Source: Candidatus Omnitrophota bacterium (GTDB taxonomy: Bacteria > Omnitrophota > Gorgyraeia > Zapsychrales > JANLHA01). Taken from it: a stretch of 64,000 nucleotides of DNA. The notes under the pieces are model-generated. The model was not told where the DNA came from and did no database searches. It saw nothing but the letters and a program-made list of their open reading frames with translations. Shown here one piece after another: positions 15,230 to 62,536 of the stretch (positions within the stretch are counted from its first letter, which is position 1; each line of letters opens with the position of its first letter). Position numbers and translations under genes: made by a program. Location of the stretch: assembly GCA_022711395.1 (NCBI GenBank), contig JAKLFA010000005.1, positions 132,302 through 196,301 of the forward strand, read 5' to 3'.

Positions 15230-16678
15230 ATGATCTTCATGAGTGAACGCCCATATTTATGTGATGTGCGCAAGTTCGCCAAACGCCGTAAGGTCCGGGT
15301 ATATTTGGTGGGCGGATTCGTGCGCGATCTTTTTTTGAAGCGCGAATGCATGGACTTTGATTTCGCGGTCGAAAAGAACGCCATAGCCTTTGCCAAGGCT
15401 TTTGCCAAATCCATTCGCGGAGCGTTCATCCTTTTGGATGCTGAACACGGCTGCGCCCGTGTGGCAAAAAAAGAAAAAGGCAGGGTCCTGACGTATGATT
15501 TTGCTGACTTCCGTGGCAAGACGCTCAAGGATGACCTTAAGCGCCGTGATTTTACCATAAACACATTGAGCATAGATATTTCGTCTTTAGAGGATGGTGA
15601 TTGTCTTGAAAAAGGGATGGCGGATGCCGTCCGAGCAAAGCGTGACCTTAAAGATGGCCTGCTTCGCATGGCGTCCAAACAGGCTTTTGTTGAGGATCCA
15701 CTGAGGATTCTGAGGGCCTTTTCTCTGCAGGCCCAGTTGGGGTTCCGAATAGAAAAAGAAACGCTGAAGCAGATCAAAACAGATCGGGACCGTATTGCCG
15801 GAGTATCGGCTGAGCGCCTTCGTGATGAGCTGTTTAAAATCCTGGAGTCGGACCGTGCAGGGACCATCCTTAGGGCCATGGACCGCCTCGGGATCCTGGA
15901 CCGGGTGATCCCTCAAGTTCGGCTCATGTTCGGCGTTGAGCAGGGGACATATCATCATTTGGATGTTTGGCCGCACGCCCTTGAAACCGTTAAGCAATGC
16001 GACCAGGTGATCCGCATGTTCCGGAGCGATGAACGGATTTCAGGATATTTAAAAGAGAAGATAGCCGCCAATCACAGTCGGGCGGCCCTTTTAAGGTTTT
16101 CCTGTTTACTGCATGATATCGGAAAGCCTGATACCCGACGAAAAGAAGGGGACCGGATCTGTTTTCACGGGCATGAGCATGTGGGGAGGCAGATCTCGGA
16201 CCAGGTGGCAAAAGACCTTAAGCTTTCCACGCGTGAACGGCTGGCGGTCGGGACCATGGTTCGTTGGCACCTTCGCCCGGGATACCTTTCTAATTTCAAG
16301 CGGCCCAGCGAGAGAGCGTTCTTCCGTTATTTCCGCGACACGGCTGATGAAGCGGTCGGCATCGCGCTTCTGTCTTTGGCCGATCAGCAATCGACTTGCG
16401 GGCCGATGACCACGGAAGATGACCAGAGGCATCACAAGGACATTTGTTTGGAGATCATCGATCGTTTCTTTTTGGAAAAAGATAAAAAGCCATTTGTTCC
16501 ATTGATTAATGGACATGACCTGATAAACAGTTTAAAATTAAAACCATCGCCTCTTTTTAGTGAGATCCTTTCGAAGGTCGAAGAGGAACAGGGGCTGGGC
16601 AGGCTGACCACGCCCGAGGGCGCTTTGGCCTACGCCGCAAAGCTGGCAGCCCAATTGGGAAAGAAGAAACCTTCATAA
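15230..16678 (+). CDS. cca: CCA-adding tRNA nucleotidyltransferase with HD domain
   Basis: 482 aa; PolyA-pol head domain (VYLVGGFVRDLFL, catalytic D..D); C-terminal HD motif LLHDIGKP. Confidence 0.85.
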   Translation: MIFMSERPYLCDVRKFAKRRKVRVYLVGGFVRDLFLKRECMDFDFAVEKNAIAFAKAFAKSIRGAFILLDAEHGCARVAKKEKGRVLTYDFADFRGKTLKDDLKRRDFTINTLSIDISSLEDGDCLEKGMADAVRAKRDLKDGLLRMASKQAFVEDPLRILRAFSLQAQLGFRIEKETLKQIKTDRDRIAGVSAERLRDELFKILESDRAGTILRAMDRLGILDRVIPQVRLMFGVEQGTYHHLDVWPHALETVKQCDQVIRMFRSDERISGYLKEKIAANHSRAALLRFSCLLHDIGKPDTRRKEGDRICFHGHEHVGRQISDQVAKDLKLSTRERLAVGTMVRWHLRPGYLSNFKRPSERAFFRYFRDTADEAVGIALLSLADQQSTCGPMTTEDDQRHHKDICLEIIDRFFLEKDKKPFVPLINGHDLINSLKLKPSPLFSEILSKVEEEQGLGRLTTPEGALAYAAKLAAQLGKKKPS

Positions 16679-17548: not shown

Positions 17549-17755
17549 ATGGAATGTCTTAAGGAAAAAAACATGGCATATTGCAACTGTTCTTACAGCG
17601 GATGCGCTAAACATGGCATCTGCTGTCAATGCCTGCATTATCACCGGGCCAAAGGGGCTTTGCCGGCGTGTTATTTTCCTGAAGATATTGAGCGGGGATA
17701 TGACCGCTCTATTGAGAATTTTATCCGCGTGTGGCAACAGCGGCACCATTTGTAA
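17549..17755 (+). CDS. small Cys-rich protein (DUF6485-like)
   Basis: 68 aa with 8 Cys in CNCSYSGC...CCQCLHYH...LPACYFP pattern; good RBS (AAGGAAAAAAACATG). Confidence 0.5.
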   Translation: MECLKEKNMAYCNCSYSGCAKHGICCQCLHYHRAKGALPACYFPEDIERGYDRSIENFIRVWQQRHHL

Positions 17756-18686: not shown

Positions 18687-19184
18687 ATGAACATTTCATT
18701 GATCGGCATGGCGGGCGTTGGAAAAAGCACGGTCGGAAAAGCGCTGGCCCGAAAACTCGGCGTGCGTTTTTATGATACGGACAAGATCATCGAAGAGAAG
18801 GTCGGCCTTAGGCTGCAGTCGATCATCAATGATATTGGTGAACAGGATTTTCTTTTGATCGAGGAGGACGCGGTCCTTAATCTTGACCTGAGCGAGCCTT
18901 CGGTCGTTGCTCCGGGAGGGAGCGTTGTGTATTGCGAGAAGGCCATGGAATTCCTGCAGGAAGCGGGCGTTGTGGTCCAATTGAAGGCTGGGATCGAGGA
19001 TATCAAGGGGTGGATCACGAATATCCAGAACCGCGGGATCGTTCGTTTGAAAGGCAAGACGATCGAGGAATTATACGCGGAGCGTTCAAAATTGTATGAG
19101 CAGTATGCTGATCTGACGGTCGAAATAGGGAAACATCGAACGGTGGATGAAGTTGTTGAAGAGATCATCGGGAAGGTTTATTGA
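18687..19184 (+). CDS. aroK: shikimate kinase
   Basis: Walker A GMAGVGKSTVGK directly after Met and a shikimate-kinase fold. Start is taken at MNISLIG (18687), not the upstream in-frame ATGs. Confidence 0.8.
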   Translation: MNISLIGMAGVGKSTVGKALARKLGVRFYDTDKIIEEKVGLRLQSIINDIGEQDFLLIEEDAVLNLDLSEPSVVAPGGSVVYCEKAMEFLQEAGVVVQLKAGIEDIKGWITNIQNRGIVRLKGKTIEELYAERSKLYEQYADLTVEIGKHRTVDEVVEEIIGKVY

Positions 19185-22638: not shown

Positions 22639-22663
22639 GCCAGGACGATAAAGTAAGAAAAAA

Positions 22664-22700
22664 GGGCAAAATACAGTTTCGTATTTTGCCCTTTTTTATT
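22664..22700 (+). terminator. rho-independent terminator
   Basis: perfect 11-bp stem GGGCAAAATAC/GTATTTTGCCC, 6-nt loop, then TTTTTTATTT. Confidence 0.75.
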
Positions 22701-31742: not shown

Positions 31743-31769
31743 TTAGCACTCGCATCGATTGATTGCTAA
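31743..31769 (+). promoter_or_regulatory. CIRCE operator (HrcA binding site)
   Basis: TTAGCACTC-N9-GATTGCTAA has 1 mismatch to the consensus TTAGCACTC-N9-GAGTGCTAA. It lies 44 nt upstream of hsp20. Confidence 0.75.
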
Positions 31770-35760: not shown

Positions 35761-35788
35761 TTGACAAGAAAGTCTTTTTTGTTATAAT
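35761..35788 (+). promoter_or_regulatory. sigma70-like promoter TTGACA-N16-TATAAT for hrcA-grpE-dnaK-dnaJ
   Basis: consensus hexamers immediately upstream of CIRCE. Confidence 0.5.
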
Positions 35789-35794
35789 AACGGC

Positions 35795-35821
35795 TTAGCA
35801 ATCTCATTGTTTGAGTGCTAA
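35795..35821 (+). promoter_or_regulatory. CIRCE operator (HrcA binding site)
   Basis: TTAGCAATC-N9-GAGTGCTAA has 1 mismatch to the consensus. It lies 31 nt upstream of hrcA. Confidence 0.8.
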
Positions 35822-37266: not shown

Positions 37267-39177
37267 ATGGCAAAAGCAATTGGTATCGATCTGGGAACAT
37301 CAAATTCCGCCGCCGCGGTCATGGAAGGCGGACGGGCGGTCATTTTACCGTCGGCTGAGGGAGCTGGTGTCGCTTCAGGCAAGGCTTTCCCTTCATTTGT
37401 GGCGTTCACAAAGGACGGGCAGCGCTTGGTCGGCGAGCCGGCCCGCCGGCAGGCACCGATCAACTCTGAAGGAACGATCTACGCGGCCAAGCGGAAGATG
37501 GGGAAAGATTATAAATTCAAAGTCTTTGATAAAGAGTTTACCCCGCAACAGGTGAGCGCGTTTATCCTTCAAAAGATCAAAGCGGACGCTGAAAAATATT
37601 TGGGTGAGACTGTTGATGAAGCGGTCATAACGGTCCCCGCGTATTTTAATGATAATCAACGCCAGGCGACGCGTGATGCCGGAGAGATCGCAGGGTTAAA
37701 GGTCCTGCGCATCATCAATGAGCCCACGGCGGCGTGTCTGGCTTATGGTCTGGACAAGGCGGGCAAGGACCAGAAGATCATGGTCTTCGATCTTGGCGGC
37801 GGAACACTGGATGTCACGATTATGGAGATGGGATGGGATGATGAGCATAAAGCGGCGACGTTCGAGGTCCTTTCGACCAGCGGCGACAATGAGCTTGGCG
37901 GGACAGATATGGATAACGTGCTGATCGCCCATATTTGCGAAGAATTCAAAAAGACAAGCGGTATTGACCTTAAGAACGATAAAATGGCCTTTCAGCGCCT
38001 GCGCGAAGCGGCGGAAAAGGCCAAGGTCGAGCTCTCAAGCACGATCTCAACGGAGGTGAATTTGCCTTTTATCACCGCGGATGCCAGCGGTCCCAAACAT
38101 TTGACCATGACCATTGAGCGGTCCAAATTGGAGTCTTTGATCAATCCGATCATTGAACGCTGCCGTCAGCCGATCATTCGTGCTTTGAAGGACGCTTCGG
38201 ATAAGATCGGCGGCCAGGTCAAGGTCGACCGTGTCATCATGGTCGGGGGCCCTACGCGCATGCCGTGCGTTCAGGCCTTTGTGGAGCGGGAAGTCGGCCA
38301 GACCATCGAGCGTGGGATCGACCCGATGGAATGCGTGGCTTTGGGTGCCGCGATCCAGGCTGGGATCGTCAGAGGCGAAGCTAAAGAAGTGCTGCTTCTG
38401 GATGTCACGCCGTTGTCTTTGGGGATCGAGACCATGGGAGGGATTTTTACAAAGCTTATTGACCGCAACACGACGATACCGACCAAGAAGAGCCAGGTCT
38501 TTTCAACCGCTGAAGATAATCAGCCTGCAGTCACGATCCGCGTTCTTCAAGGTGAACGTCAGATGGCCAATGACAACACGGAGCTCGGCCGTTTTGACCT
38601 GGTGGGGATACCGCCGGCGCCGAGAGGGATCCCTCAGATTGAGGTCACGTTCGATATTGATACGGATGGGATCGTCCATGTTTCAGCCAAGGATAAGGGG
38701 ACCGGTAAAGAGCAAAGCATCAAGATCACGGCCCCTCATAAACTTTCGGATGACGAGATCAATAAAATGGTCAAAGACGCCGAGCAGTATGCCGATCAGG
38801 ACAAAAAGCGCAAAGAAGAGGCCGAACTTTTGAATCAGGCCAATACCGTTGTTTACGCGACGGAAAAATCTTTAAAGGATTATGGAGACAAGGTTTCCGC
38901 TTCCGATAAAGAGAATATTGAAAAAGAGCTTAAGGCCTTAAAAGAAGCCGTTGGAAAAAAAGACGCTTCTGCCATCAAAGCGGGGATGGAATCCCTTCAA
39001 AAGGCCAGTCATAAGCTGGCGGAAGAGGTTTATAAAGCGACGGCCGCGCAGCAGGCGGCTCAGGGCCAGGGCGCTAACCCCCAGCCTGAAAGCGGCGCAA
39101 GTGGCAACGCGGAGAAAAAATCCGACAAGGCGGACGGTAAAGATGACGTCATCGATGCGGATTTCAAATCTGAATAA
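37267..39177 (+). CDS. dnaK: molecular chaperone DnaK (Hsp70)
   Basis: 636 aa; [18 protein letters not shown] motifs. Confidence 0.98.
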
Positions 39178-39185
39178 GACACCAG

Positions 39186-39232
39186 GACACTAAGGCACTA
39201 TCACACCAAGCGGTTTTTAGTGCCTTAGTGTC
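39186..39232. repeat. palindromic intergenic element, copy A (GACACTAAGGCACT ... AGTGCCTTAGTGTC)
   Basis: perfect 14-bp inverted repeat with a 19-nt T-rich loop, directly after the dnaK stop. A related copy lies at 60921-61010. Confidence 0.7.
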
Positions 39233-39264
39233 ATAATGTTCCCAGTGCCTTTGAGAAAGCGAAC

Positions 39265-40410
39265 ATGAAAAAAGACTACTACGAAATTCTGGGTATTAAC
39301 CGCGACGCCGGCGTTCAGGATATCAAGAAGAAATATCGGTCCCTGGCGTTGAAATATCACCCTGATCGTGTGCCTCAAGATCAGAAAAAGGAGGCCGAGG
39401 AAAAGTTTAAGGAGATTTCTGAGGCCTATGGTGTTCTCTCTGATCCTGAAAAGAGAAAGTTATACGATCAGTATGGTCATGCGGGTATTGACCGGAATTT
39501 TACCTCTGATGATATTTTTCGAGGTGCTGATTTCAGCGGGTTTGGGGATCTGGGAGATATTTTCAGCCAGTTCTTCGGCGGCGGCGGGGGTTTTGATATT
39601 TTTGGCGGCGGATTTGGTGGAAACGCCCGGCAGGCGGGTCCGCGCCGGGGGCGCGATATTCAGTATGAAATGGAAGTAACTTTAGAAGAAGCGTTTTCGG
39701 GTGTAACTAAAAAGATCACGGTCCCGCGCTATGAGCACTGCGTGGATTGTAACGGATCTGGGGCCAAGAGCAAAGACCATGTCAAGACCTGCTCCGCGTG
39801 CGGCGGTTCGGGACAGGTCGTGATGGCGAGCGGATTTTTCCGCATGGCGCAGACCTGTTCATCATGCGGAGGCCAGGGCCGTGTTGTGACAGAGCATTGC
39901 CCCAAATGCTCCGGCCGCGGTATGGTGAAGGTGACCCGTCATATTGAGGTCAATGTTCCTGCCGGGGTCGACAGTGATAGCCGTTTGCGTGTTAAGGGCG
40001 AAGGTGAAGTTGGCGCGGGAGGGGCCGGGGATCTTTATTTATACATTCTTGTAAAGAAACACCCGGTCTTTCACAGGGTGAACGCGGATATTGAAATGGA
40101 CCTGGGGGTGAGTTATATCGTGGCGGCTTTGGGGGGAGAGGTTTCGGTGGCGACTTTAAGCGGCGAGGTCAAGATGAAGATCCCCGCCGGCACGCAAAGC
40201 GGAAAAGTTTTCCGGTTAAAAGGAAAAGGGATGTCGGTCTTACGCGGGAACGCTTTGGGCGATCAGTATGTGCGGGTCATGATCGAGGTGCCGAAGCGTT
40301 TGTCGGCAGCGGAACGCGAGCGCCTTGAGGAGCTTGCCAGGATCACGGAAACCCCTGTGGACCAGGAAAAAGAATCCCCGTTGGATAAGGTGAAAAAGAT
40401 CTTTAAATAA
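39265..40410 (+). CDS. dnaJ: molecular chaperone DnaJ
   Basis: J-domain HPD, G/F-rich linker, four CxxCxGxG zinc-finger repeats. Confidence 0.97.
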   Translation: MKKDYYEILGINRDAGVQDIKKKYRSLALKYHPDRVPQDQKKEAEEKFKEISEAYGVLSDPEKRKLYDQYGHAGIDRNFTSDDIFRGADFSGFGDLGDIFSQFFGGGGGFDIFGGGFGGNARQAGPRRGRDIQYEMEVTLEEAFSGVTKKITVPRYEHCVDCNGSGAKSKDHVKTCSACGGSGQVVMASGFFRMAQTCSSCGGQGRVVTEHCPKCSGRGMVKVTRHIEVNVPAGVDSDSRLRVKGEGEVGAGGAGDLYLYILVKKHPVFHRVNADIEMDLGVSYIVAALGGEVSVATLSGEVKMKIPAGTQSGKVFRLKGKGMSVLRGNALGDQYVRVMIEVPKRLSAAERERLEELARITETPVDQEKESPLDKVKKIFK

Positions 40411-40423
40411 GCGGAGGAAAAAG

Positions 40424-40687
40424 ATGCCGACCTATCAATATGAATGCAGCGGATGCGGCCATGCTTTTGAGAAGATGCAGTCTATCACAGAGGCGAAATT
40501 AACGGTTTGCCCTTCTTGCAAGAAAAGCACGTTGCACCGTTTGATCGGGACCGGTTCGGGCCTGATCTTTAAAGGAAGCGGGTTTTATCAGACAGATTAC
40601 AAAAACAAACCCTGTTCACCCAACACCTGCCCAGTTCAAAAAGATTCTGGCGGATGCTGCGCGGATTCTGGCAATTGCCAGCATTAA
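40424..40687 (+). CDS. FmdB-family zinc-ribbon protein
   Basis: MPTYQYECSGCGH...CPSC plus a Cys-rich C-terminus. Confidence 0.75.
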   Translation: MPTYQYECSGCGHAFEKMQSITEAKLTVCPSCKKSTLHRLIGTGSGLIFKGSGFYQTDYKNKPCSPNTCPVQKDSGGCCADSGNCQH

Positions 40688-40702
40688 GTTATGCCTTCCC
40701 TG

Positions 40703-40738
40703 AGCCCGGAGAAAATTCCTTCTCCGGGCTTTCTTATA
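40703..40738 (+). terminator. rho-independent terminator of dnaK-dnaJ-fmdB operon
   Basis: perfect 10-bp stem AGCCCGGAGA/TCTCCGGGCT, 8-nt loop, followed by TTCTTATAT. Confidence 0.6.
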
Positions 40739-59047: not shown

Positions 59048-59983
59048 ATGGATGAACAATCGGTCATTTTTATCAGCGGAGGTAACGGTCTTAAGGCACG
59101 GGCCATCGCGGAACATTTTGGTTCCCTGGGCTATCGGCGCCTTTTGACAGCGCGTTCAGCCGGGCTGGATATCCTGAGCCGCGAAGCGGTTGATGATTTT
59201 TTCAAAGAATATCATCCTGCCTATGTGATCATAAGCCCACTGGCATCTGAGGAGCCCTCGGGCGTTGATAATCGTCCGGCAGAATATTTTTTGATGAACA
59301 TGCTGGGGCAGACGCATGTGATCGATGCCGCCTATCGCCATGGAGCGAAAAAACTTTTGTACTTGGCGGGCGGTGATGTTTACCCCCGTCAGTGTCCGCA
59401 GCCGATGAGGGAAGAATATATCGCCGCTGGTCCGTTATGCCCTTATAATCGGGCGAACGCTATCGCGCAGGCGGCCGGGATCGCGATGTGCCAGGTTTAC
59501 CGGAAGCAGTATCAGTTCAACGCGGTGGTCGCGGTCTCTTCCATGGTCTACGGCCCTTCGGGAGGGGAAGATGAGGGCCGGCAGGGATTTTTGTCTGAGA
59601 TGATCGATCTTTTTGTCGAGGCGGTAGCGGAAAACGCAAAGAAGGTCCGGATCGTCCGGAATCCCGATGTCCGCAGGGAATTTTTGTTCTCAGCGGACTT
59701 TGCCGAGGCCTGCGAATTTCTGTTGCGCCATTATGACGGGAAAGAGCCCGTGAACATTGGTTCCGGCGTGGATGTTTCGATCCGCGATCTTGCCGAAATG
59801 ATCAAAGACATTTCCGGGTTCGAAGGGGCCATTGAATATGATGGACGCGCGCATGACGAGGACTTTCAACGGCTTTTGGATGTCGCGTCCCTGCACACGA
59901 TGGGATGGATGGCCAGGACTGTCTTGCGGGAAGGCCTTGTGCGTTTGTGGGAGACGTCTTATAAGAAAGGATTGCTGATATGA
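59048..59983 (+). CDS. GDP-L-fucose synthase-like SDR (epimerase/reductase homolog, possibly non-canonical active site)
   Basis: 311 aa; Fcl/GER1-like fold (KKLLYLAGGDVYP, MVYGP); see finding about missing S/Y/K. Confidence 0.75.
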   Translation: MDEQSVIFISGGNGLKARAIAEHFGSLGYRRLLTARSAGLDILSREAVDDFFKEYHPAYVIISPLASEEPSGVDNRPAEYFLMNMLGQTHVIDAAYRHGAKKLLYLAGGDVYPRQCPQPMREEYIAAGPLCPYNRANAIAQAAGIAMCQVYRKQYQFNAVVAVSSMVYGPSGGEDEGRQGFLSEMIDLFVEAVAENAKKVRIVRNPDVRREFLFSADFAEACEFLLRHYDGKEPVNIGSGVDVSIRDLAEMIKDISGFEGAIEYDGRAHDEDFQRLLDVASLHTMGWMARTVLREGLVRLWETSYKKGLLI

Positions 59984-60912
59984 AGATCTTGGTTACCGGC
60001 GGGGCGGGTTACATCGGTTCGGTCCTGGTCCCGCGCCTTTTGAAAGAGGGCCACACGGTCACGGTTCTGGATAATTTCATGTATAAGCAGAGTTCGCTTT
60101 TAGATTGCTGCGTGGACCCAAAGCTTGAGGTCGTGCGGGGGGACGCGAGGGATCCCGCCCTGGTGGAGCGTCTCATGAAGACGGCGGACGCTATTTTTCC
60201 GCTGGCGTGCTTAACGGGCGCGCCGTTGTGCGCCATGGACCCGGATACGGCGCGCGGCGTGATCGTTGATGCGGTGCGAAAAATTCTGAAGGTCAAAAGC
60301 AAAGACCAGATCATTGTTTATCCGACCACAAACAGCGGTTACGGGATCGGGGAACGGGATAAGATGTGCACGGAAAAATCTCCGTTAAAGCCGGTGTCGC
60401 TATACGGTCGGTTGAAGGTGGAGGCGGAAGAAACGATTCTTCAGGCCGGAAACGCGATCACTTTAAGGCTGGCCACGGCATTCGGGGTCAGCCCGCGCAT
60501 GCGGCTGGACCTTCTGGTCAATGATTTTACTTACCGGGCGGTCTATGACCGTTATCTGGTGATCTTTGAGGCGAAGTTCCGCCGGAATTTTATTCACGTG
60601 CGTGACGTGGCCAAGGCGTTCTCTCACGCGTTGAACAATTTCGAAAAAATGAAGGACCAGGCCTATAACGTCGGGTTAAGCGACGCCAATTTGAGCAAAT
60701 GGCAGCTGTGTGAAGAGATCAAGAAATTGATCCCTGATTTTTATTTTGTTGAGTCGGACATCAATGAGGACCCGGATAAACGGGACTATATCGTCTCCAA
60801 CGAAAAGATCGAGGCGGCAGGGTTTAGGCCGGACCATTCGCTTCAGTCGGGCATTGTGGAATTGATCAAAGCCTATAAGATCATCAAACGCAACCAGTAT
60901 GCGAATATTTGA
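59980..60912 (+). CDS. NAD-dependent epimerase/dehydratase (extended SDR)
   Basis: 310 aa; VTGGAGYIGS Rossmann motif, YGRLK YxxxK. Confidence 0.8.
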   Translation: MKILVTGGAGYIGSVLVPRLLKEGHTVTVLDNFMYKQSSLLDCCVDPKLEVVRGDARDPALVERLMKTADAIFPLACLTGAPLCAMDPDTARGVIVDAVRKILKVKSKDQIIVYPTTNSGYGIGERDKMCTEKSPLKPVSLYGRLKVEAEETILQAGNAITLRLATAFGVSPRMRLDLLVNDFTYRAVYDRYLVIFEAKFRRNFIHVRDVAKAFSHALNNFEKMKDQAYNVGLSDANLSKWQLCEEIKKLIPDFYFVESDINEDPDKRDYIVSNEKIEAAGFRPDHSLQSGIVELIKAYKIIKRNQYANI

Positions 60913-60920
60913 AATGACAA

Positions 60921-61010
60921 GACACTGGGGCACTAAGGCACTTCGACACTGGTGTCTTAGCAACTTGGTTTTAAGTTTTTTAGTGCCCTAGTGTCTTAGT
61001 GCCAGGTGTC
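60921..61010. repeat. palindromic intergenic element, copy B (GACACTGGGGCACTAAGGCACT ... TTTTAGTGCCCTAGTGTCTTAGTGCCAGGTGTC)
   Basis: shares the GGCACTAAGGCACT and TTTTAGTGCC(T/C)TAGTGTC cores with copy A at 39186-39232; internally palindromic (GACACTGGTGTC). Confidence 0.7.
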
Positions 61011-61030
61011 TTTAATAAGGTTGAGCGGTC

Positions 61031-62536
61031 ATGTCGTTAGATATTTTGTTCATACATCCTAATGCGGCAGAAATCCTTTATCAGGGGCTGAATAAAACAT
61101 ATTCCGCGATCGAACCGCCGATCTGGGCGGGGATGCTTGCCAATCATGTGCTGAGCCGCGGTTACAGCGCTGAGATCCTGGACACCGAGGCGTTGCAGGC
61201 CACCGATGAACAGGCGGTCGGCTGGATCACAAAGGTTTGCCCGCGTTTAGCGGCATTTGTGATCTACGGTCAGCAGCCCAGCGCGTCCACTCAGAATATG
61301 GAGGGCGCTGTTCGGCTGGCGGAAAAATTGCGCGCCGTGGCGCCGGAGCAGAAGATCTTGTTTGTCGGGGCGCACGTGGCCGCCCTTCCTTTTGAAACAT
61401 TGGAAAGGCATGGATGTATTGATTTTGTGTGCCAGAACGAAGGCGTTTATACGATCTCCGGACTTTTGGCCACGGACCTCCGTTCGAAGCTCGACAAGGT
61501 TCGGGGATTGGGATGGAGGAGTGAAAAGGACATTGTCTTAAATCCGCCGTCCGCGATCGTTTCACAAAAGGACCTGCAGAAAGAATTGCCGGGCGTGGCG
61601 TGGGACCTGTTGCCGATGGAGCGTTACCGCACGGCCCTGTGGCACGCGCTTCCCAACGGATGCGTTCGCGAGCCGTTCGTCTCGCTTTACACCAGTTTGG
61701 GCTGCCCGATGAAATGTTCGTTCTGCATGATCAATATCATTAACCGTCAGGATAACGCCTATTCAGACGGAAGCGCGGTGTTCCGTTACTGGGATCCGGA
61801 ATTTATCATCAAGGATTTTGAGCGTTTCGCCCGGATGGGGATCAGGAACATCAAGATCGCGGATGAGCTTTTTGTCTTTAAGAAGGAACATTTTTTAAAA
61901 TTGTGCGAACTGATCATTGAGCGCGGGTTTGATTTCAATATCTGGTGCTACGCGAGGGTCGATATGACGCGGCCTGAATATCTGGAAACGATGAAGCGGG
62001 CCGGGGTCAACTTCTTGGCGCTCGGCATTGAAAGCGGTAATGCGCGGGTCCGGAGCGGGGTGACCAAGGGGCGGTTTAAGGAAACGGACATTGAACAGGC
62101 CGTCCGGACGATCCAGGATTGCGGGATCTCCGTGGCGGGGAATTATATTTTCGGATTGCCGGATGATGACCGTGACAGCATGCGGGAGACTTTGGACCTG
62201 GCCAAGAGATTGAACACGGAAATGGCGAACTTTTATTCGGCGATGGCCTATCCGGGAAGCCCTCTTTACGGCATGGCGCTGCAGGAAGGGTGGGCGTTGC
62301 CGGAGCGTTACGCGGGATTTTCGCAGCATTCGTATTACACGCGGCCTTTACCGACGAAATATTTAAGTGCTGAGGAAGTTTTGGCGTTCCGGGACAAGGC
62401 GTGGATGGAGTATCACACGCGGCCGGAATTTTTGACGGTGCTCAAAGAAAAATTCGGGCAGACGGCCGTTGATGAAACGCTGCGTTCGACCCGGATCAAA
62501 CTTAAACGAAAGATCCTAGAGGAGGCGGGGATATGA
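61031..62536 (+). CDS. B12-binding domain / radical SAM protein
   Basis: 501 aa; N-terminal cobalamin-binding-like domain, radical SAM Cys triad GCPMKCSFC. Confidence 0.85.
   Translation: MSLDILFIHPNAAEILYQGLNKTYSAIEPPIWAGMLANHVLSRGYSAEILDTEALQATDEQAVGWITKVCPRLAAFVIYGQQPSASTQNMEGAVRLAEKLRAVAPEQKILFVGAHVAALPFETLERHGCIDFVCQNEGVYTISGLLATDLRSKLDKVRGLGWRSEKDIVLNPPSAIVSQKDLQKELPGVAWDLLPMERYRTALWHALPNGCVREPFVSLYTSLGCPMKCSFCMINIINRQDNAYSDGSAVFRYWDPEFIIKDFERFARMGIRNIKIADELFVFKKEHFLKLCELIIERGFDFNIWCYARVDMTRPEYLETMKRAGVNFLALGIESGNARVRSGVTKGRFKETDIEQAVRTIQDCGISVAGNYIFGLPDDDRDSMRETLDLAKRLNTEMANFYSAMAYPGSPLYGMALQEGWALPERYAGFSQHSYYTRPLPTKYLSAEEVLAFRDKAWMEYHTRPEFLTVLKEKFGQTAVDETLRSTRIKLKRKILEEAGI

Follow-up and report, generated by a model that had tools for sequence, protein, structure and literature searches.

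Mirror-paired octamer arrays at gene ends of a Candidatus Omnitrophota bacterium and related arrays in other bacteria

Introduction

The window analyzed in this study is a 64,000-nt stretch of contig JAKLFA010000005.1 (positions 132,302 to 196,301), which belongs to a metagenome-assembled genome (MAG) of Candidatus Omnitrophota from anaerobic-digester metagenomes. It contains the heat-shock genes hrcA, grpE, dnaK, and dnaJ, and a palindromic element, designated as copy A, occupies the spacer between dnaK and dnaJ. A second palindrome, copy B, lies between the genes for an NAD-dependent epimerase and a B12-binding radical-SAM protein (Table 1). An original prediction had placed two related palindromes at these sites, both between plus-strand genes, and had assigned copy B to a sugar operon; both positions were confirmed, and the operon is more exactly a same-strand nucleotide-sugar/polysaccharide cluster.

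We describe here the family to which these palindromes belong. The arms are head-to-tail arrays of an 8-nt unit, which are followed by a short loop and then by the mirror array. The consensus of the unit is CACTAAGG (mirror, CCTTAGTG) in the family and GRCACTAN (mirror, NTAGTGYC) in the Omnitrophota genome. That this dispersed family built of octamer units is real appears to us nearly certain. Dispersed repeats with short units, such as the short tandemly repeated repetitive (STRR) sequences, TAACTGA, and GGGAATC, were recognized decades ago, and neither their function nor their origin is known. To these the octamer family adds a clean architecture, with fixed ACCAC/GTGGT ends and a place within about 10-25 nt of stop codons, and a unit that is present in cultured isolates (Runella and Pinibacter) and hence testable.

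Results

Copies in the Omnitrophota genome

The stem of copy A comprises 15 bp without a mismatch around a 17-nt loop; it is indeed the perfect inverted repeat originally predicted, with one A-T pair more than the 14 bp and 19-nt loop then given. It starts 9 nt past the dnaK stop and ends 32 nt before the dnaJ start codon. The forward units are GACACcag (39178-85), GACACTAA (39186-93), GGCACTAT (39194-201), and a degenerate CACACCAA (39202-09), while the mirror units are TTAGTGCC (39217-24), TTAGTGTC (39225-32), a degenerate ATAATGTT (39233-40), and CCAGTGCC (39242-49), the last of which can also be read as cCCAGTGCC. The fourth forward unit has decayed inside the loop and is intact in the related strain at locus L085. 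Since the dnaK-dnaJ spacer is base-for-base the same in four independent assemblies, copy A is not an assembly artefact.

Table 1. Features of the two elements and their surroundings in the window (a dot marks features without an assigned strand)
Feature	Position	Strand	Remarks
Copy A, whole element	39178-39251	.	R1 match 39182-39236, 39-41 bits, E ~1e-7
Copy A, left arm GACACTAAGGCACTA	39186-39200	+	perfect complement of 39218-39232
Copy A, loop	39201-39217	+	17 nt, TTTTT at its end
Copy A, right arm TAGTGCCTTAGTGTC	39218-39232	+	perfect complement of left arm
Copy B, whole element	60919-61013	.	R1 match 60917-60999, 37-38 bits, E ~1e-7; Tandem Repeats Finder (TRF) period 8
Copy B, inner palindrome GACACTGGTGTC	60945-60956	.	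tip of copy B
hrcA operon start	35761-35821	+	perfect sigma-70-type promoter TTGACA-16-TATAAT with TG, then CIRCE (1 mismatch)
dnaK	37267-39177	+	TAA stop 39175-39177; 8 nt between stop and copy A stem
dnaJ	39265-40410	+	3' of copy A, same operon; ATG at 39265
Terminator after dnaJ and zinc-ribbon ORF	40702-40731	+	12-bp GC-rich stem-loop, T-rich tail
NAD-dependent epimerase gene	59980-60912	+	TGA stop 60910-60912; copy B ~7 nt (6-8) after
B12-binding radical-SAM gene	61031-62536	+	ATG at 61031, 18 nt past copy B

Copy B carries the cores GGCACTAAGGCACT, AGTGCCCTAGTGTC, and AGTGTCTTAGTGCC, and the sharing of cores between the two copies held, as did the longer nested palindrome in copy B, whose inner part forms the tip. 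Its forward units are GACACTGG (60921-28), GGCACTAA (60929-36), GGCACTTC (60937-44), and again GACACTGG (60945-52); the mirror units are TTAGTGCC (60980-87), CTAGTGTC (60988-95), TTAGTGCC (60996-61003), and AGGTGTC (61004-10). A third copy, copy C, was found on a 40-kb contig of the same organism (L084:20621-20706), about 9 kb past the right end of the window. It starts right after the priA stop codon, with fmt as the next gene, and has the core GACACTAAGGCACT...AGTGCCTTAGTGTC as in copies A and B; two of its five mirror units are unpaired and lie 3' of the stem. At least three copies are therefore present within ~74 kb of this genome, each fewer than 10 nt past a stop codon and between same-strand genes.

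Within the window, 7 matches to the 13-mer GRCACTAAGGCAC were counted when up to 2 mismatches were allowed, where 1.21 are expected, and 0 of 100 shuffles reached 7. Likewise, 12 of the 26 GRCACT/AGTGYC hexamers in the 64 kb are concentrated in two 100-nt spots, namely copies A and B. Both copies fold more stably than their shuffles on both strands (z-scores of -4.1 to -5.5).

A stable fold (z -4 to -5) would be expected of an independent small RNA gene or riboregulator, and the original prediction had listed a small structured RNA among the candidates. This candidate did not survive: local scans around the window copies found no promoter-like site, the palindrome is symmetric on both strands and shows no polarity, and in operons the element starts no more than 10 nt from a stop codon. 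No Rfam family (release 15) matched at the gathering threshold in the window or in 18 canonical loci; below it, only generic miRNA-hairpin models appeared, whose 15-27 bits fell short of gathering scores of 35-87. We consider a small RNA gene extremely improbable.

Unit architecture and covariation

The family alignment contains three units per arm and gives the consensus nTTnA-CCACTAAG-GCACTAAG-nnCACTAAG-loop-CTTAGTGnn-CTTAGTGC-CTTAGTGG-TnA, or, with the most common bases filled in, TTTTA-CCACTAAG-GCACTAAG-NNCACTAAG-loop-mirror. The ends ACCAC...GTGGT are shared across the family. The flanks follow TTT(T/C)A-CCAC...GTGG-T(A/G)AAA, with a T-run before the stem and an A-run after it, by which the stem is lengthened. 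TRF independently reported a period of 8 at 60981-61003 of the window (2.9 copies), L084:20668-20705 (4.8 copies), L081:9954-9987 (4.2 copies), L085:743-765, and L085:782-805.

A helix of 26 bp was imposed on the alignment by hand, as RNAalifold picked a slipped register owing to the repeating units. In this helix 87% of the cells form standard pairs, compared with 30-46% when the partners are slid. Variable pairs show compensatory changes (A-U 50/G-C 10, A-U 47/G-C 5, and G-C 22/A-U 7).

With a period of 8, CACTAAG places TAA and its mirror CTTAGTG places TAG in all three frames on both strands (e.g., L036:2382-2449 and 39186-39232). The common variants CACTGAG (TGA), CACTTAG (TAG), and CACTAGG (TAG) retain a stop on the forward arm. 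As a general rationale for the unit, however, stops in all six frames fail for the variants CACAAAG, CGCGAAG, and CCCAAG.

Distribution across phyla

We scanned 185,579 species-representative genomes with the pattern CACTAAGGCACT-N(10-40)-AGTGYCYTAG, for which chance would give ~8 loci (596e9 x 2 x 31 x 4^-20 x 2^-2). This strict palindromic pattern was matched at 73 loci; about 71 of them have further units that the pattern did not force and the ACCAC...GTGGT ends, while the remaining 2 (Paraglaciecola and Virgibacillus) resemble chance hairpins. The family is thus far larger than the two copies originally counted, with a third copy past the window and 73 loci elsewhere. The original prediction had also named the conditions under which the likeness would be fortuitous, i.e., no further copies and no conserved structure, and the scan and the covarying helix clearly showed the opposite.

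Going by record titles, many of the carriers are Bacteroidota, among them the isolates Runella limosa, R. aurantiaca, R. salmonicolor, Pinibacter soli, P. aurantiacus, and Chitinophagaceae 26-R-25. Further carriers in this phylum are Saprospiraceae, Paludibacter, and Draconibacterium, and those outside it are Ignavibacteria, Balneolaceae (Rhodothermota in GTDB), Calditrichota, Melainabacteria/Gastranaerophilaceae, a Coleofasciculaceae cyanobacterium, Elusimicrobia, Desantisbacteria, and UBP2; one Acetobacteraceae MAG is a putative carrier. The unit is common to at least seven phylum-level groups, and we are highly confident that the family crosses phyla. Strict-pattern loci number 11 in one Chitinophagales MAG and 8 in one Saprospiraceae MAG. 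A metagenome scan with a stricter pattern returned 3 loci only and, having missed the window's own contigs, says little on copy number.

A covariance model, R1, was trained on foreign loci only, with no window sequence. It matched the window exactly twice, at copies A and B (Table 1), and also recovered copy C, the orthologues at L081 and L085, and, in the fetched loci, ~12 more copies that were not picked by the pattern. One point weighs against assigning the window copies to the family: the two chance-like pattern matches reach 29-33 bits, so that the window copies (37-41 bits) score only modestly higher and owe part of this margin to the shared core of 22 nt. Independent support for membership comes from the periodicity of 8 nt and from the threefold recurrence in one genome. 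Given the 13-mer and hexamer excess, the 73-locus scan, the R1 matches, and copy C, a chance likeness of two unrelated hairpins is refuted for practical purposes.

Viral contigs contained 0 copies. A BLAST search of plasmid and phage records with the consensus also gave 0 matches, although its low-complexity filter may mask the repeat. Full-text searches for exact sequence variants yielded primer coincidences or nothing, and nothing was found in the literature on Omnitrophota repeats. We found no account of the family in Rfam or in the searchable literature, a search outside which most subscription journals lie.

Saprospiraceae/Chitinophagales MAGs also contain near-perfect composite palindromes of ~140-200 nt, down to -133 kcal/mol, in which the CACTAAGG core is nested (L028:1190-1370, L035, L061, L062, L072, L051, and L006). 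An GAGTTGGCGNNCGGCTGGG module is flanked by outer arrays, which consist of GAGTGTTT/GAGTGCCT to its left and of AAACACTC/AGGCACTC to its right, and the outer unit AGGCACTC equals the inner AGGCACTA bar one base, in opposite polarity. Long arrays alternating GGCGCGAAG, GGCACAAAG, GACACGAAG, and GGCACTAAG were seen at L018:6927-7031, L050:5748-5998, L070:2736-2810, and L062:7231-7286. These arrays are without stop codons; some are direct only, and one has a mirror array ~60 nt off.

Position relative to genes

Crude calls of open reading frames (ORFs) in the fetched loci place the element between genes in 52 of the 54 cases that could be scored. Of 54 elements, 20 are in convergent spacers against a background of 17% (p = 4.5e-4), 26 in co-directional spacers, and 8 in divergent ones, which would contain promoters. 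The adjacent stop codon is at a median distance of 26 nt (within 20 nt in 32 of 67 cases) and the adjacent start codon at a median of 75 nt. In several convergent pairs (L009, L016, L023, L025, and L039) the element fills the whole spacer, with 6-11 nt on either side.

Like a Rho-independent terminator, the element is a stable stem-loop directly after a gene. That identity was rejected, in agreement with the original prediction: the T-run is upstream of the stem or inside the loop and not downstream, local scans around the window copies found no such terminator, and the GC-rich stem followed by a U-tract is not the form of the family, only 5 of 71 elements having a T-run of four or more after the stem. 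A bidirectional terminator or attenuator that lacks a U-tract, works through the hairpin only or with a factor, and lets partial read-through into dnaJ is another matter. It would account for the enrichment between convergent genes, particularly where the element is the entire spacer and no room remains for another terminator, and in Xanthomonas the starts or ends of transcripts are more frequent at repeats that form structures (PMC4692102). However, the T-run upstream and A-run downstream are the reverse of a bidirectional terminator such as that at 22658-22697 of the window (A6-stem-T6), and the host uses canonical terminators elsewhere (22658-22697 and 40702-40731). Moreover, co-directional genes flank about half of the elements, and all three Omnitrophota copies are located in gene clusters whose downstream genes would be silenced by full termination. 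We therefore give this explanation little credence.

Evolution at orthologous sites

Three Runella species, and likewise two Paludibacter MAGs, have the element in the same convergent spacer. At these sites the two outer units are invariant while the inner units and the loop diverge, and the outer units stay fixed while flanking synonymous sites change.

By way of DnaJ homologues we reached eight related Omnitrophota dnaK-dnaJ spacers, so that nine were examined in all. A stable stem-loop lies just past the dnaK stop in eight of the nine, the exception being L088, with a spacer of 2 nt. Only three contain the octamer family: that of the window species and those of L085 (97% DnaJ identity) and L081 (86%), which have four units per arm in other registers and fold at -48 and -39 kcal/mol, respectively. 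The family is absent from L082, L083, and L086-L089 (65-70% DnaJ identity). In two of these, the architecture of mirror arrays with period 8 recurs with unrelated sequence: the hairpin at L086:9916-10000 is built of RRCACANG/CNTGTGYY and that at L087:7871-7954 of four NNNCCCAAG and four CTTGGGNN, both at about -40 kcal/mol. L082, L083, and L089 have plain hairpins. Because the units at one and the same site differ, the architecture appears to matter more than the sequence, and hairpins that differ by lineage at the dnaK-dnaJ site allow architecture and sequence to be separated as the thing maintained.

Other short arrays were observed in these relatives. At L081:17357-17385, (GTAAAGC)x4 starts within a stop codon. 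In L089, (ACAAGAC)x3.7 lies right past a stop (16431-16456) with a mirror array ~125 nt downstream (16581-16614), and the arrays (GGTTTTA)x4.6 and (TAGGGAAT)x2.9 lie at gene ends (17671-17702 and 18786-18808).

One explanation for such behavior is that the palindromes are functionless by-products at the DNA level, or selfish elements, which are tolerated after stop codons and between convergent genes and which arise by polymerase slippage or by the spread of a non-autonomous palindrome through gene conversion or an unlinked enzyme. It agrees with the perfect symmetry of the palindromes and the absence of strand bias; with the shifts of unit number and register between strains of 97% and 86% DnaJ identity; with the unrelated 7-8-nt arrays that relatives have at the same gene ends and at others; and with the complete absence of the family from the six more distant relatives. 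Furthermore, paralogous copies in one genome are alike even in the loop (L035, L062, and L028), which implies duplicative spread within a genome, and published heptamer families behave similarly without a known function (PMC4692102 and PMC4679880). On the other hand, there is no target-site duplication, as the flanking bases co-vary as a palindrome (CA...TG) and do not form a direct repeat. No neighboring gene recurs across 76 loci: an all-against-all comparison of 519 flanking ORFs (~8-kb flanks) gave no protein family in more than 5 loci, and neither a REP-associated tyrosine transposase (RAYT) nor another linked transposase was seen beside them, although a RAYT is usually single-copy and could lie elsewhere in the genome. 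No parent insertion sequence with the same termini was seen in the fetched flanks, and no viral, phage, or plasmid copies turned up, with the masking filter as a reservation on the BLAST part. The outer units are invariant across species at orthologous sites, independent slippage would hardly yield an identical 8-mer in many phyla, and nearly every relative keeps some hairpin after dnaK. On balance, we regard a mere by-product as somewhat unlikely, though a serious competitor. If the element has no role in mRNA control, it would still be a tractable model for the rise and spread of slippage-prone palindromes.

Discussion

Comparison with known repeats

The octamer family has the traits of dispersed short-unit tandem repeats, i.e., arrays of 6-9-nt units, dispersed intergenic copies, and variation at orthologous sites. 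Among these, the cyanobacterial STRR sequences, reportedly described by Mazel and co-workers in 1990, are said to be tandem 7-nt units dispersed in the intergenic DNA of one lineage; to our knowledge, their function has not become known for over 30 years. They differ from the octamer family in unit sequence and length and are not characteristically hairpins. The repetitive extragenic palindromic (REP) elements of Proteobacteria, including BIME and REPIN, are many-copy extragenic imperfect palindromes after gene 3' ends or between convergent genes. Transcribed REP hairpins stabilize the upstream mRNA in operons (reviewed in PMC3733652 and PMC2817692), and the families are species- or genus-specific. 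A cognate RAYT gene, which codes for an IS200-like Y1 transposase, typically has REPs on its flanks. The octamer elements are likewise extragenic imperfect palindromes, enriched at gene 3' ends and in convergent spacers. In contrast to REP, they end in TTTYA-CCAC / GTGG-TRAAA with no GTAG or CGTC head, their arms are tandem 8-mers, and the unit crosses phyla; the motif is also absent from the Di Nocera catalogue. The suggestion of a REP-like or RNA-stability hairpin in the original prediction remains the best functional guess, whereas strict REP membership does not hold.

MITEs (miniature inverted-repeat transposable elements; Correia/NEMIS, RUP, ERIC, and Nezha) are co-transcribed and able to alter mRNA stability. 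Like them, the octamer elements are small, non-coding, dispersed palindromes beside genes; unlike them, they have neither a target-site duplication nor a structure of terminal repeats only, and their flanks continue the palindrome. CIRCE is, like copy A, an inverted repeat in a heat-shock operon, and the letters are superficially alike (GGCACTAA vs GAGTGCTAA), but the octamer core is GCAC where CIRCE has GTGC, and the octamer family also lies beside unrelated genes. The identity was rejected: TTAGCACTC-N9-GAGTGCTAA with up to 3 mismatches matches the window only at 31743-31769 and 35795-35821.

The closest relatives in behavior are two published heptamer families. GGGAATC of Xanthomonas and GGGGA(C/T)T of Nostoc/Anabaena form dispersed intergenic head-to-tail arrays of ~4 units with a strong bias to adjoin or overlap stop codons; they occupy the same site in related species with variable length and sequence, and their function is not known (Rehm et al. 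2015, PMC4692102). In Xanthomonas, 70-75 convergent (inverted) pairs per genome could form stem-loops (PMC4692102). The octamer family resembles them in its dispersed tandem units, inverted pairs, stop-codon bias, and variation at orthologous sites. It differs in that the unit is 8 nt long, is not G-rich, and has no G-quadruplex potential; the inverted pair is the rule and not the exception; the unit spans many phyla and not one genus; and divergent spacers are undepleted. The hairpin at L083:9925-9995, built on GGAATCCC / GGGGATTCC, resembles the GGGAATC / GGGGATT units, which may be a coincidence.

TAACTGA heptamers form intergenic direct arrays in Beggiatoaceae, Cyanobacteria, and a few Bacteroidetes; only one inverted case is known, and the arrays, mostly 1-43 nt upstream of start codons, were proposed to be translational signals (MacGregor 2015, PMC4679880). 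The two families share one unit in distant phyla, overlapping carriers (Cyanobacteria and Bacteroidetes including Paludibacter), stop codons in all three frames, and a suspected horizontal spread for which no vehicle was found. The octamer elements, however, are mirror pairs close to stop codons and not direct arrays before starts. What is new relative to the heptamer families is the 8-nt unit, the obligatory mirror pair with fixed ends, and the range of one unit over many phyla.

A stabilizing hairpin as the tentatively favored function

The reading that we favor, if only tentatively, is a REP-like co-transcribed hairpin which may protect or process the upstream mRNA inside operons and which does not act as a terminator. 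The element would be transcribed as part of the operon mRNA, and the very stable hairpin directly 3' of the upstream cistron would act via its stem, either by blocking 3'-to-5' exonucleases or by serving as an RNase III site. The upstream message (dnaK, epimerase, and priA) could then outlive, or be uncoupled from, the downstream one (dnaJ, radical-SAM, and fmt) without termination, while the arrays probably grow, shrink, and re-register via replication slippage within the repeats. This reading fits the place of the copies in operons and the reversed T/A flanks, as well as the recurrence of hairpins at dnaK-dnaJ and the need of cells for more DnaK than DnaJ. Precedents are the E. coli REP in malE-malF, which Newbury and colleagues reportedly found in 1987 to stabilize the upstream mRNA, and the stem-loop after dnaK that is said to operate in the B. 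subtilis dnaK operon (Homuth and colleagues, 1999). If true, operon stoichiometry in poorly studied phyla would commonly be determined by an element that goes unannotated.

Several observations weigh against the stabilizing hairpin. An RNA element should prefer G.U to A.C mismatches on the sense strand, but 28 co-directional loci gave 62 against 52, which is no signal, and among single-orientation loci the most variable pair has its G.U on the sense strand 5 times and on the antisense strand 8 times. Forward units outnumber, are outnumbered by, and equal mirror units in 8, 6, and 13 cases, respectively, again with no polarity. The antisense fold of copy A is the more stable one (-39.6 vs -31.2 kcal/mol for the sense strand). 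Divergent spacers are not depleted (15% vs 16% background), and L088, without a real dnaK-dnaJ spacer, indicates that a hairpin is dispensable there. Finally, a role of structure only fails to account for the same 8-mer being kept across phyla. In favor of the sense strand there is a weak, non-independent trend in the Omnitrophota hairpins (G.U 27 sense vs 14 antisense); of 10 such hairpins, 5 fold better on the sense strand and 3 fold worse. The sequence data do not discriminate selection at the RNA level from that at the DNA level.

The identity of the 8-mer across phyla would best be explained by a conserved trans-acting factor that reads the unit. One form of this idea is an array of binding sites for a sequence-specific factor common to the carrier phyla, which might be a protein that binds single-stranded RNA or DNA and reads one unit with each module, or else a nuclease or recombinase whose substrate is the hairpin; access to the unit sites would be controlled by the palindrome. 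The unit CACTAAG is kept from phylum to phylum, whereas loops and spacer bases differ, the termini ACCAC...GTGGT are defined, and a spacing of 8 nt, which is off the double-helix repeat, suits single-strand recognition. In addition, the three Omnitrophota copies have, on the sense strand, further NTAGTGYC units that lie 3' of the stem and are unpaired, and the same idea has been put forward by MacGregor for the TAACTGA repeats (PMC4679880). Against it, no candidate protein was found and no linked gene among the 76 loci, the extra 3' units are not family-wide, and quite different units occupy the same site in other Omnitrophota. We judge this form to be quite unlikely. In a wider form, the CACTAAGG array would be the recognition element of an undescribed trans-factor or mobilization machinery common to the carrier phyla, with the 8-nt period corresponding to one unit per binding module. 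That this is so seems unlikely to us, as does its elaboration into either a gene-end system, post-transcriptional or at the DNA level, or a phylum-crossing palindromic mobile element without a linked transposase.

The heat-shock operon and its surroundings

The stem-loop at 40702-40731 is likely the true terminator of the hrcA-grpE-dnaK-dnaJ operon. With the promoter and CIRCE before hrcA and this terminator after dnaJ, copy A is internal to the transcription unit. Elements of this kind are unannotated, and they are likely points of contig breaks in MAG assemblies. A zinc-ribbon ORF (40424-40687; PF09723 in relatives) lies directly 3' of dnaJ; its position is kept in most Omnitrophota relatives, and it is annotated in only some assemblies of the host species. 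A second CIRCE (1 mismatch) at 31743-31769 precedes hsp20/clpB genes and, together with that at hrcA, constitutes an HrcA-CIRCE heat-shock regulon in the Omnitrophota genome.

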